NCBI GenBank assembly: GCA_014905635.1
Contig: JABVCE010000020.1
Coordinates: 434,001 to 498,000 of the forward strand
DNA length: 64,000 bases
Source of the DNA: Scenedesmus sp. PABB004
Lineage: Eukaryota
Reading direction: 5' to 3'
The notes under the pieces were generated by a model. That model did not search any database. It worked only from the letters and a program-made list of their open reading frames with translations, and was not told where the DNA came from. A program made the position numbers and the translations under genes. This document shows positions 16,677-27,144 of the stretch, piece after piece. How positions within the stretch are numbered: the first letter of the stretch is position 1; each line of letters opens with the position of its first letter.

Positions 16677-18558
16677 ATGCAGCTGGGGCGCGCCGGCGCC
16701 CCGGGCCTGGCGCCCAGCCGCCTGAGAGCGGTCGGGGGCGCGTCCAGGCTGCAGCTGGGCATCCGCCGCGCCGCGCAGGCGCCGGCCGGCGCGCGCCTGC
16801 TGCCGGGCGCAGCCAGGCCGGCGGGCGCGCTCGCTCGGGGCCTGGGTGGCCCCACCGGCCCCGCCTCGCGCCACGTGGCGCGCGCGACGAGCAACGGGCG
16901 GCAGCCCTGCAGCAGCGGGCAGGGCGCGGGCGCGCCGCGCGACGGCGGCAGCGCGCCGGAGCAGCAGCAGCGCGGCCCGGGCCCCGCCCCGCAGCGGCGG
17001 CAGCAGGCGCTGCCGGCGCTGCTGGCGCGCGCATTCGGCTACGCCTCGCTGCTGGCGCTGGCTGCGGGCGTCGCGGCGCAGCCCAGCCACGCCGCGCAGC
17101 TGCCGAGGTGAGCACCGCGGCGCGCGCGCGATCGGCCGGCCGCCAGCGGCGGCGGCGGCTCCCCGCGCGCGCCGCTGCTCACGCGCCCGCTGCTGCCGCG
17201 CCGCGCGCGCGCAGGCGGGACGCCATCACCACCGACGCCGGCGGCGCCGGCGCCAGCAGCGCCGCGCCCAGCAGCAGCAGAGCGAGCGGCGGCTGGCGGC
17301 TGGCGGGCGTCGGCGCGCTTGCCGCGGCGCCGGCCCAGCAGCAGCAGCAGCAGCAGCAGCAGCCAAGCAAGCAGGAGGTCGCGGCGGCCGTGCGTGTGCG
17401 CGTGCGCGCGCCGCCGCCCCTCCCCCTCCCCCTCCCGCGCCGCCGCCGCGCCTCCCTCCCGCCGCCGCTCGCTCCCGCGCGCCGCCGCGGCCCCGCAACC
17501 ACCCCCCCCCCACACACACACAACACCCACGCCCACGCCCACGCCCAAACACACGCAGGGCCGACCCCGCGCTGCGGGCGCTGATCTCGGCCAAGAAGGC
17601 CGCCTGGTACGCGGCGCGGCCGCAGCTGTCGCCCGGCGCGGGCGTGTACGAGGCCGCGCTGCTCAGCCGGCTCGGCGTGCCGCTCGACTTTGAGGCGCTC
17701 AATGCCAGCATGGTCTACGCCCCGGGCGACGTCCAGGACCGGTGCGGGCGGCGGCGGCGGGCGCGGCGGCGGCGGCGACGACGCGCGCGACGGAGGCGTG
17801 CTCCCCGCCCGCGCGCCGCCGCCTCCGCGCTCCCCGCGCACGCCAACGCACCTCGCGCCGCGTGCGTCTGCCCCCCCCCCCCCCCCGCCCCGCCCCGCCC
17901 GCACCACCGCAGCAAGGACGGCGGCGCGATCTACACCTTTCTCAACGCGAGTCTCAACCAGTACGACAACGAGGACTTTGACCTCGGCATCAAGCAGTTT
18001 ATGATCGAGCAGGTGCGGCTGCTTGTGTTTGTTGTGTTGTGCCTGTGAGGCCAGGGGGGGGGGGGGGGGGGGGACGCGTTGCGACGGTGGCAGCGCGGCG
18101 CGCGGCGGCGGCGGCGGCGGCGCGCGGCCCAGCCAGGGGCCCTCGCCCGCCCCCCGCCAGCGGCGCCGCTGACCCCCTTCCCCGCGCCCCCGCGCCCCCT
18201 GCGCCCCCGCCGTTCCCCCGCCGCCGCGTCACAGGCCATCCAGCAGGAAATGGAGGACGGCCTGGACAAGAAGGGAGACAACAAGGTGCGGCGCGCGCGC
18301 GTGTGCTTGCGCGTGTGTGCTTGTGCTTGTGTGCGCGCGCGTGTGCGTGTGCACGCGTGTGTTGGTGGGCGCCGCGGGCGGCGGCCTGGCGCGCGCCGCG
18401 CGCCGCGCGCCGCCGTGCGCGTCACCCACGGCCCCTCCCCTGCCCCCTCCCCCAAAAATCAAACCCAGGACTTTGAGGAGAAGCTCGCGGAGCAGCTCTT
18501 TGCCGACGAGGGCGATGGCGAGAAGATCACGGTGCGCCCCCCCTCCTCTCTCCCCCGC

Positions 18559-18607
<49 letters not shown>

Positions 18608-25610: not shown

Positions 25611-25641
<31 letters not shown>

Positions 25642-27144
25642 ACACGCAGGTGCTGTCTGCGGGCATGGGGCGCAAGATGGGCCCGCTTGACCTCATGACC
25701 CTGCACCCCAAGGCGGCAGAGGACAGCGGGTGCGCGGCCAGGGTTTAGCCCGTGCGCGGGGCTCCGGGGCGCGCGCGGGCACGCGGCGGCCGCATGCGGG
25801 CGCGGCGGCCGCCCCGCCGCGGCGCGCCGCTGCACGCCTCCCCCGCTCGCCGCACGCCCCCTCCCCCCGCCCGCTGCTCACCGCCCGCCGCGCGCCTCCT
25901 CCTCCCGCCGCCCGCACGCGCGCGCGCCGCCGCCCGCGCCGCCGCCCGCGCCGCAGCGGCGACCTGCTGCGCACGCTGGAGCCCAAGGACGCGAGCGATG
26001 AGGACTACTACTATCACTCGACAGACATGCCCACAGAGATGGTGCGCGGTTCAGGGTTCAGGGACCAGCGCGGGGCGCTAAACCCCGAGGGGGGCTCAGG
26101 GGGCTGAGGCTGTGAGCGGGCGGCCGAGGCTGTTTCTGGGCGGGGAGGGGATTGCGGCGCGCGCGCGCGCGAGAGACAGGGAGAGAGCGAGGCGGGCCGG
26201 CGGAGCGCGGCGGCGCGGCCGGCTGACCGGCCGGCCCCGCCCGGCGCCCCGGCGCCGCGCCGCCGCGCAGGCGCGCGTCGCGCTGAGCGAGGTGCTGGAG
26301 CTGCTCGAGGCGGCCGAGGCCAAGGCGGCGTACGGCCTCGCGACCAACTGGGCGCCGCTGCAGGCGCTGGTGGAGGCGCTGCTCGAGCGCGGCGTGCTGC
26401 AGGTGATGACGCAGGGGGGGGGGGGGGCGTGGCGCCGCCGCGTGCTTGCGACTCCCCCCACGCCGCGCCGCCGCTGGCTCCACTCCCTCACACACACACA
26501 CACACACACACACTCACGCCCCCCCCCCAAACACTCTCACACACACTCGCTGCCGCTCTGACTCTCGCCCTCCCTCTCCCAAACCCAAACCCTCAACCCT
26601 ACCCCCCCCCCCCAAACCCCAGGGCAAGGAGGTGTCGCACATCCTGGAGACACACGGCGTCATCCACTTTCCAGACCCCTACGTGGTCGGCTTTGGCTGG
26701 GAAGACGACGGGTCGCTGCTCTACCCGTTCAAACCGCGGCCGTCGACAGCTGGCGCCGGCGGCGGCGACGCGCCCGGCTACGGCGGCGCGCCGCCGCCCG
26801 AGACCGGCCCGCGCGGCGACGGCGGCCCCGGGCGCGGCGGCCCCGGGCCCGGCGCGCCGGGCGCGCCGGGCGCCGAGGCGGAGCCGGCGCTCGCCGGCGC
26901 GGCGGCGCGCACGTGGTATGCCGGCACGGCCGCCGACGCGCCGCGCGACGCCGACGGGCGGCTGTCGCTCGGGTGGCACTGGAACAGTCCGTTCCGCATC
27001 AAGCGCGACGCGCCGGACCTGTACCGCAAGGAGGTCGCCCGCTACGTCTCGCCCGGCCCGGGGCGGCCCGCGGGCGCGGGCGGCGACGGCGGCGCGAGCG
27101 GCGACGGCGGCGGCGCGGGCGGCGGCGCGGGCGGCGCGCCGTGA
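16677..27144 (+). CDS. Plastid FtsH-like AAA+ ATPase, protease-inactive (FtsHi type), about 26 exons; one apparent frameshift at ~22545
   Basis: Transit-peptide-like N-terminus and TM segment ([17 protein letters not shown]). Walker A GAPGTGKT, Walker [45 protein letters not shown]. The M41 zinc motif HEXXH is replaced by YEAGK. Stop TGA 27142-27144. Confidence 0.9.
21850..22275. repeat. Tandem array (~170 nt period, ~2.5 copies) of long inverted-repeat hairpins inside FtsHi intron 21763-22401
   Basis: Units begin GCGGCGCGCGCGGCCGCCGCTGT at about 21860, 22031 and 22191. Each has a complementary 3' arm (..CAGCGGCYGCGCGCGCCGC). Confidence 0.8.
23443..23558. repeat. (GTGC)n/(GT)n microsatellite at an intron 5' end
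   Basis: Read directly from the sequence; begins at the GT donor after SGFTG. Confidence 0.9.
23826..23882 (+). repeat. Degenerate interstitial telomere-like (TTTAGGG) array at the 5' end of an FtsHi intron
   Basis: gtcagggtttagagtttagggtaaagggtttgagggtttagggtttgagggtttagg immediately follows the donor site. Confidence 0.85.

Follow-up and report, generated by a model that had tools for sequence, protein, structure and literature searches.

Telomere-like repeats of opposite strand at the two ends of introns in an FtsHi-type gene of Scenedesmus sp. PABB004: separate signals or a bridging stem?

A 64-kb window of the genome of the alga Scenedesmus sp. PABB004 (contig JABVCE010000020.1, positions 434,001–498,000; coordinates below are those of the window) contains a chloroplast-protease-like gene for an FtsH-like AAA+/M41 protein of the FtsHi type (17559–27142, plus strand, with further 5′ exons lying before 17559), for which 24 exons and 23 confident introns were modelled from reading frames and checked by tblastn and Pfam. 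The first-pass annotation of this DNA described G-rich, telomere-like tracts at the 5′ ends of the FtsHi introns and complementary C-rich tracts at their 3′ ends, and proposed that the two pair in RNA to bridge the splice sites. The locus raises the question of whether the two ends of an intron act together, as the arms of a stem, or separately. The polarity is borne out in the 23 introns, and we tentatively favour, with close to an even chance of being right, a reading in which the introns have two separate splice-site-proximal signal zones, an exaggerated and repeat-built form of a general G-to-C polarity of introns.

Across the whole 64-kb window, which has a GC content of ~75–84%, the exact heptamer TTTAGGG occurs 10 times and its complement CCCTAAA 11 times. 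Nine copies of each lie within FtsHi introns, and no exact copy of either was found in the FtsHi exons. All statistics for this gene refer to the 23 confident introns between 17742 and 26622, and introns 17108–17214 and 17389–17558 are excluded. Eight of the nine intronic TTTAGGG copies are in the first fifth of their intron and eight of the nine CCCTAAA copies in the last fifth. When at most one mismatch is permitted, the introns contain 20 TTTAGGG-like (G-type) and 37 CCCTAAA-like (C-type) units, with 19 of the former in the first fifth and 34 of the latter in the last two fifths. Unit positions follow the splice sites rather than the halves of the intron. Every one of the 20 G-type units starts 8–90 nt from the 5′ splice site, 34 of the 37 C-type units end 6–91 nt from the 3′ splice site, and among the five introns that reach 400 nt or more, where the ends make up 35% of the bases, 28 of 29 units lie no more than 100 nt from an end (binomial p=3e-12). 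G-type units are present in seven of the 23 introns, in every one in the 5′ half only, and C-type units in 13 (11 in the 3′ half only, one in the 5′ half only, and one in both); the most 3′ C-type unit ends 6–32 nt ahead of the AG in 12 of these 13.

Other sequence elements are arranged in the same way. The 13-mer TAAACCCTGCCCC has 19 matches with two or fewer mismatches (0.52 expected), 16 of them in the FtsHi gene: five in the G orientation, all within 80 nt of a 5′ splice site and one overlapping the donor, and 11 in the C orientation, all in the 3′ parts of introns. Tandem Repeats Finder (TRF) reports arrays of period 7 (AGGGTTT, 7.4 copies; CCCTCAC, 11.4; ACCCTGA, 2.6), period 13, and period 19–20 with GC-rich decay variants. 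The variable base in the C-type motif CCT-N-AAC is A in 11 cases, C in six, G in three and T in two, and that in the 5′ motif GTT-N-AGG is T in nine, C in three, G in two and A in one. The polarity extends to (GT)n and G-runs as opposed to (CA)n and C-runs, and the GC skew of the FtsHi introns, +0.30 over the first tenth, falls to about −0.55 over the final two. Homopolymer runs of ~14–22 G or C are found at 18054–18073, 25607–25627, 17871–17900 and 26414–26430, with G in the 5′ parts and C in the 3′ parts of introns. Intron 18532–18774 departs from this pattern: a (CT)n/pyrimidine tract takes the place of G-rich sequence in the 5′ part, CTAAC and CTTAAAC stand within A/C-rich sequence in the 3′ part, and the end duplex is worth just −8.4 kcal/mol.

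The other introns of the window provide a comparison set, and these are predictions only, made by a small hidden Markov model (HMM) using FtsHi codon usage and short splice-site matrices. The model recovered 20 of 23 training introns and predicted 81 others, of which 60 were kept (60–800 nt in length, each flanking exon at least 50 nt) and 21 dropped. Unit density is about 22 times higher in the FtsHi introns (8.5 per kb) than in the 60 predicted others (0.39 per kb), and GC content is 78.6% versus 83.4%. The motif CT-N-AAC has 23 copies in 11 of the 23 FtsHi introns and three copies in three of the 60 others, many of which are without any obvious branch motif. The FtsHi introns are longer than those elsewhere in the window, as had been claimed for them (median 222 versus 129 nt, p=6e-7). 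The other predicted introns share the polarity in a weaker form, with a GC skew running from +0.08 to −0.21. The enrichment in units is largely specific to the FtsHi gene within the window. Two candidate causes were rejected: intron length alone, as just two units turn up in the 5.2 kb of 18 other introns that reach 170 nt or more, and exon composition, as GC at third codon positions (GC3) is 0.95 in FtsHi versus 0.92–0.97 in eight neighbouring predicted genes whose chosen frame looks coding (seven at 0.95–0.97 and one at 0.92). Three more predictions, for which the frame taken was evidently wrong, yield no GC3 value.

The introns themselves are old. A metagenome scan with the Tetradesmus obliquus homologue P0003 gave 38 loci, and ten related loci examined for units contain no exact TTTAGGG and one exact CCCTAAA. 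These loci are distant, with best-segment identities of 41–91% for seven intron-bearing loci and 58–62% for the other three (L001–L003). Four intron-bearing orthologues (L032, L034, L035 and L038) have about 13 intron positions in common with the window gene, at P0003 residues of about 262, 299, 336, 394, 414, 453, 473, 534, 586, 709, 773, 828 and 870, these positions being approximate as they are read from the boundaries of high-scoring segment pairs (HSPs). Because the shared positions occur in orthologues without units, the introns are old and their repeat content is lineage-specific, and they are not introners. In the L038 orthologue, G exceeds C on the 5′ side of 10 of 12 HSP gaps and C exceeds G on the 3′ side of nine of 12. 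The G-to-C polarity therefore appears to be common to relatives, and the telomere-like arrays to be a lineage-specific filling of pre-existing introns. L001, L002 and L003 are FtsHi-like matches that extend over 386–882 residues without apparent interruption, on contigs of 67–73% GC, and may be intron-poor relatives or transcript-derived contigs.

The proposal that the ends are joined holds that, within each intron, G/U-rich units at the 5′ end form a duplex with C/A-rich units at the 3′ end, which would bring the 5′ splice site close to the branch site and 3′ splice site and let long introns splice in a GC-rich, structure-prone transcriptome. The first-pass annotation named the comparison of true with mismatched end pairs as its own test, and by that test bridging as a general model fails, since true pairs fold no better than mismatched ones. 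RNAduplex energies for the first versus the last 100 nt or fewer of each intron average −74.6 kcal/mol for true pairs and −72.4 for mismatched pairs (20,000 permutations, p=0.20). Pairs formed across an exon, between the 3′ end of one intron and the 5′ end of the next, average −71.9 kcal/mol (Wilcoxon p=0.59 against pairs across the intron). Nor do the ends pair better than separately shuffled ends of the same composition (mean z −0.15; five of 23 below −2 and four above +2), and the 60 other predicted introns give a mean z of −0.07 in the same test. The complementarity of intron ends is, in these models, generic and not intron-specific.

The two ends are independent also in what they contain, a further point against bridging. 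G-type units and 3′-half C-type units are found together in three introns, G-type alone in four, C-type alone in nine and neither in seven (Fisher p=0.67), such that 20 of the 23 introns lack one or both types. The counts of the two types per intron are uncorrelated (Spearman 0.03), as are the 5′ and 3′ skews (rho 0.02). Over 83 introns the density of GGG per 40 nt is 1.5 at its favoured end versus 0.14 at the opposite end, and that of CCC 2.4 versus 0.54, with no co-occurrence of the triplets beyond independence (p 0.5–1.0). In the FtsHi gene at least three GGG are present in the first 40 nt of nine introns and at least three CCC in the last 40 nt of 20, with both in seven of the 23 (p=0.54). 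In predicted minimum-free-energy (MFE) folds, the terminal 30% segments of FtsHi introns do cross-pair more than in whole-intron shuffles (0.28 versus 0.17, p=0.025), which favours bridging. Yet ordinary neighbouring introns close as well in silico, with cross-pairing of 0.32 and a median end-to-end path of 6 versus 7 in FtsHi. Shuffling within each half, which leaves the polarity intact, gives folds no more stable than shuffling over the whole intron, so the polarity itself adds no predicted stability.

Other support for bridging comes from intron length. Unit number grows with the length of the intron (rho 0.49, p=0.019), and whole-intron stability, expressed as z from dinucleotide shuffles, is below −2 in nine of 23 FtsHi introns, led by the five long ones (z −3 to −12 and −2 to −22 with two kinds of shuffle). 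In 20688–21392, 21763–22401 and 23826–24428, internal palindromes together with a 160-nt tandem repeat seem to account for most of the excess stability, and end complementarity beyond composition is clear only in 21763–22401 (z −4.0) and 22586–23013 (z −3.4). In the first of these (plus strand), three GGGTTTAGGG units at the 5′ end face CCCTAAACCCTAACCCC at the opposite end, with the 160-nt tandem repeat of hairpins between them. The second (plus strand) is predicted to form a single long end-joining rod (−283.8 kcal/mol, z −5.7, with none of 100 shuffles as stable), in which a G-rich arm of GGTTCAGGGTTGAGG...GGGCTTAGGG and G-runs pairs with a C-rich arm of CCCTCAACC, two CCCTAAACCC and C-runs. 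A predicted intron of another gene (39626–39739, plus strand) has the same design in miniature, GT-rich with GTTTAGG at the 5′ end and TTAAACCCTAAACC at the 3′ end, and its GUUUAGG and CCUAAAC pair as a local hairpin in the MFE fold. Telomere-like repeats as intron-closing stems, as first suggested, are plausible in two or three long introns of the FtsHi gene and are not its general logic, and we regard a bridging duplex as an unlikely explanation of the feature as a whole.

The reading of two separate signals begins with a G/U-rich zone within about 90 nt after the 5′ splice site, made of G-runs, (GU)n and GGUUNAGGG units, and a C/A-rich zone within about 90 nt before the 3′ splice site, made of C-runs, (CA)n and CCCUNAAC units. 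Each zone would be its own intron-definition signal, read on the pre-mRNA. The 5′ units would act as intronic enhancers of the G-run/UAGGG type, and both G-runs and UAGGG-like units at 5′ ends resemble known intronic enhancers. The 3′ units would provide branch-site-like CUNA(A)C motifs within a C-tract that may substitute for the polypyrimidine tract in an 80% GC genome. The branch-site consensus is yUnAy, the N of CCT-N-AAC falls at its degenerate position, and the 6–32 nt between the last CCCUNAAC unit and the AG is plausibly a branch-site distance. The units would be decayed arrays of telomere-type heptamers that arose in the pre-existing introns of this lineage. As the skew flips inside each intron, it is not a mutation bias of the transcribed strand, which points to selection on the RNA. 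Generic pairing between a G-rich and a C-rich zone is to be expected and may help in long introns; specific intron-closing stems would be present in just a few (21763–22401, 22586–23013 and perhaps 20688–21392).

Several observations weigh against this reading. A C-type unit is the exact reverse complement of a G-type unit, the variable base has mirrored spectra in the two, and the 13-mer TAAACCCTGCCCC is found in both orientations; this mirror symmetry, which is not expected of two unrelated signals and counts in favour of bridging, is hard to explain. The end complementarity of 21763–22401 and 22586–23013 is more than two separate signals call for. CUNAAC is not a textbook branch site, having one extra A. 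The enrichment in a single gene is left unaccounted for, with length-matched introns elsewhere holding two units, and the sample is small at 23 introns plus 60 predicted ones.

A further explanation gives the units no positive function. Near-neutral heptamer arrays of the telomere type, whether interstitial telomeric repeats or minisatellites, would have arisen and spread locally in the introns of this gene, and purifying selection would have removed the harmful orientation at each end: TTTAG/G (the slash marks the cut) would create cryptic acceptors near the 3′ end, and CTAAC with a C-tract a premature 3′ signal near the 5′ end. The TRF arrays with their GC-rich decay variants, the use of one 13-mer in both orientations, and the restriction of the feature to one gene and its absence from orthologous loci are as this explanation would have them. 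A filter on orientation predicts units anywhere in the permitted half, yet in the long introns they crowd against the splice sites, and the last C-type unit stands at a branch-site distance. Units containing A and T are kept in these introns despite an 80% GC genome, and no comparable arrays are present in the other 54 kb of the window, in introns or between genes. We consider this explanation improbable, to about the same degree as bridging.

It is rather more doubtful that the units constitute a gene-specific splicing code built from telomere-repeat-derived modules. Here the G-strand GGGUUUA and C-strand CCCUAAA RNA units beside the splice sites would be bound by telomere-strand-binding proteins of the RRM or KH type, or would clamp each other in long introns. 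Were it true, the code would co-ordinate the splicing of a many-intron, chloroplast-import-motor-like gene as a unit and make room for long introns at 80% GC, and telomere repeats would have been co-opted for pre-mRNA processing. No such arrangement appeared in the titles and abstract openings of papers found by full-text search on telomere-type repeats in algal introns or splicing and on green-algal branch sites.

An origin from transposons or introners is very unlikely; the introns, or insertions within them, would then be MITE-like elements (miniature inverted-repeat transposable elements) with GGGTTTAGGG and CCCTAAACCC as their terminal inverted repeats. Intron 21763–22401 has the appearance of such an element, with inverted repeats of about 15 nt at its ends and the hairpin-containing tandem repeat inside, as does 22586–23013, which is one long imperfect palindrome. 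The roughly 13 intron positions common to L032, L034, L035 and L038 are nonetheless old, most introns contain only one unit type, and no target-site duplications were seen. A blastn search of the introns against the window, run with DUST masking because the unmasked search gave 3600 low-complexity matches, found no related copies elsewhere in the window, its one non-self match being the internal palindrome at 24198–24315.

Motifs of the AAACCCTA type, or telo-boxes, are cis elements of plant promoters, 5′ UTRs (untranslated regions) or first introns. By analogy, the FtsHi units could be DNA-level elements bound by telomere-repeat-binding Myb proteins that set the transcription or chromatin of the gene, a suggestion we find highly improbable, as a double-stranded site needs no strand polarity and here the orientation strictly follows the intron ends, in units spread over about 15 introns and 8 kb and not at a promoter or 5′ UTR.

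Several known systems resemble the FtsHi introns in part. Lin et al. (2016, Genome Res; PMC4691745) describe zebrafish introns with AC repeats downstream of the 5′ splice site and GT repeats upstream of the 3′ one, and they define the teleost (AC)m-(GT)n class by repeats that co-occur over an intron and not over an exon. Splicing that depends on the repeats and not on U2AF2 is a further mark of this class. The precedent of these AC/GT introns, which the first-pass annotation had invoked, holds for complementary simple repeats near opposite intron boundaries that may form a bridge, and GT/AC-type repeats are present too in FtsHi introns 23443–23703, 19545–19755 and 26403–26622. It does not hold for orientation, as the FtsHi order is reversed with GT/G-rich sequence first and AC/C-rich sequence last. 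The FtsHi introns further differ from the teleost class in that co-occurrence across introns and not exons is absent from this small sample, the units are telomere-like heptamers and G or C runs, and within the window a single gene is enriched, in contrast to a known genome-wide class. The same paper reports that GGG...CCC co-occur four times more than expected in structured human introns, and that G triplets are intronic splicing enhancers (McCullough and Berget, as cited in PMC4691745); the human GGG...CCC introns and the teleost introns are the precedents for bridging. As in GC-rich human introns, GGG is concentrated downstream of the 5′ splice site and CCC upstream of the 3′ one. Unlike in the human GGG...CCC introns of that account, the G and C triplets are independent here, and telomere-like units with their extra A/T are not part of the human picture (PMC4691745).

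The FtsHi arrays are similar to plant and green-algal interstitial telomeric sequences in having the plant-type unit TTTAGGG/CCCTAAA in short, decayed tandem arrays. The period-7 arrays and the 18 exact units in the introns are of this plant telomere type, which may not be the alga's own. They differ from interstitial telomeric sequences and telo-boxes in their strict strand polarity, their nearness to splice sites and their concentration within a single gene's introns. Long yeast introns reportedly have stems that bridge the 5′ splice site and the branch point, in work attributed to Goguel and Rosbash in 1993, Libri in 1995, and Charpentier and Rosbash in 1996. The FtsHi introns of at least 400 nt resemble these in being far more structured than shuffles, with specific ends in two. 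They differ in that the yeast stems are unique to each intron, whereas the FtsHi repeat vocabulary is shared and pairs equally well between introns.

The FtsHi exon chain was assembled from reading frames and each exon then verified by tblastn with P0003, to which the exons are 73–100% identical; the junctions AFLIQ/IARYT and AKILQ/VHARN agree. All seven intron coordinates from 19545 onward in the first-pass annotation match this model. Its intron 17389–17558 is uncertain, as the GT sits at 17390 and no GT-AG pair at those coordinates keeps the frame. Pfam AAA matches fall directly on exons 22404–22523 and 23014–23166, and the best homologues are Tetradesmus obliquus proteins with PF00004, PF17862 and PF01434. 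HEXXH is the zinc motif expected in an active FtsH-type protease and is lost in FtsHi. In the tblastn alignment its position is occupied by HLAGR in both the window gene and P0003, which fits an inactive FtsHi-type protein, and the gene has the AAA+ and M41 domains with loss of HEXXH that define the FtsHi class. Three of the 23 introns (13%) have GC-AG boundaries, at 19238 (AAG/GCGCGG), 19545 (CAG/GCGCGT) and 23167 (CAG/GCGGGC), their junctions being set by alignment to P0003. GC-AG introns are ~1% of the total in many eukaryotes, and the FtsHi share is high by comparison. Exon 22402–22585 has a 1-nt frameshift, with 29 nt at 22518–22546 corresponding to 10 residues between DEFDAL and DESA in the homologue. 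It sits in a GCGCGG-type repeat in the Walker-B/sensor region and reflects either misassembly of low-complexity sequence or a genuine defect of the gene.

The remaining introns with units or related repeats, all on the plus strand, vary in which zone is developed. Those with a distinct 5′ zone include 18918–19125, with GGGGCAGGGTTTAGGGG, GGGGTTTTAGGGG and GGGGTTTAGGGG at a period of about 19–20 (18918–19010), 25203–25460, with GGGGTTAGGCGGG, GGGGTTTAGGGG and CTCAGGGGGG (25203–25270), and 26042–26270, with GGTTCAGGGTTCAGGG, GGCTCAGGGGGCTGAGG and one embedded GCTAAACCCC (26042–26120). A 3′ zone is developed in the GC-AG intron 19238–19433 (19335–19433; CAAACCC, CCCAAAACCCC and GCTAAACCCC, the final unit stopping 18 nt before the 3′ splice site), in 19842–20336 (20285–20336; a 13-nt array of CCCCGCCCCTAAA, 3.7 copies by TRF), in 20422–20624 (20550–20624; CCCTCAACCC, CCTTAACCCTAAACCCTGCCCC and CCTAAACC), in 24525–24785 (24700–24785; CCCCTGAACCCCC, CCTAAACCC and GCTAAACCCCGCCCC) and in 24862–25071 (25010–25071; CCCTGAACCCTGAACCC and CAACCCTAAACC). 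Intron 26403–26622 has (CA)n, a C-run and CAAACCCAAACCCTCAACCCTACCCC in its 3′ zone (26480–26622) and a G-run at its 5′ end.

Both ends are repeat-rich in the GC-AG intron 19545–19755, with (GT)n and a G12 run at the 5′ end and a C14 run, CTCAACCCC, CTTAAACCCTGCCCC and CCCCTAAACCCC at the 3′ end, and in 23443–23703, with 115 nt of (GTGC)n/(GT)n at the 5′ end and a C/A-rich 3′ end. The longest intron (20688–21392, 705 nt) has GGGTTAAGGGG, GTTAGGGG and CTCAGGG units at the 5′ end, GC-rich palindromes inside, and CCCCTAACCCCTCAAC, CCTAAACC, GTTAAACCC and CCCCTAAACCCC in its 3′ part. In 23826–24428 the AGGGTTT period-7 array of 7.4 copies runs from the donor onward (23826–23885), and the 3′ zone (24312–24428) contains the CCCTCAC period-7 array of 11.4 copies plus a C-run, both as called by TRF. 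The long introns have interiors composed of the 160-nt tandem repeat (2.2 copies) and of GC-rich palindromes, nearly perfect and with 40–60-nt arms (21933–22280, 19966–20099, 21091–21204, 24050–24141 and 24198–24315); the introns concerned exceed their shuffles in stability by 6–22 SD. Rfam gave no family at the gathering score, and three sub-threshold microRNA-hairpin hits on palindromes or (GTGC)n are taken as chance.

Outside the FtsHi gene, a predicted intron of another gene (33529–33764, plus strand) is built on the FtsHi design as 39626–39739 is, with GGGGTTTAGG 24 nt past the donor, three 28-nt GGGGGCTCAG-containing repeats (tandem copies of GGGGGCTCAGCCAGATCAGCTGTGGGCC at 33600–33700) and a C/A-rich 3′ end. 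Neighbouring genes encode a signal peptide peptidase (56448–57728, minus strand; Peptidase_A22B, E 1e-65) and a trypsin-like protease (53898–55124, minus strand), and weak matches are seen to an APH-like kinase (2703–4089, plus strand) and to a Sec39-like exon (62385–62945, plus strand). The predicted introns of these four neighbours are short, GCG-rich and without telomere-like units.

Intron recognition in extremely GC-rich genomes is poorly understood, as U-rich polypyrimidine tracts and A-rich branch sites are hardly possible there. The FtsHi introns show that energy-based evidence for bridging at 80% GC is nearly uninformative unless mismatched and composition-matched controls are included. 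Specific stems appear in a few of these introns and none in most, and this contrast could allow end signals to be told apart from a bridge. With 23 old introns whose ends have been rebuilt from a small repeat vocabulary in one lineage, the FtsHi gene provides a compact natural test set for how such introns are recognised.

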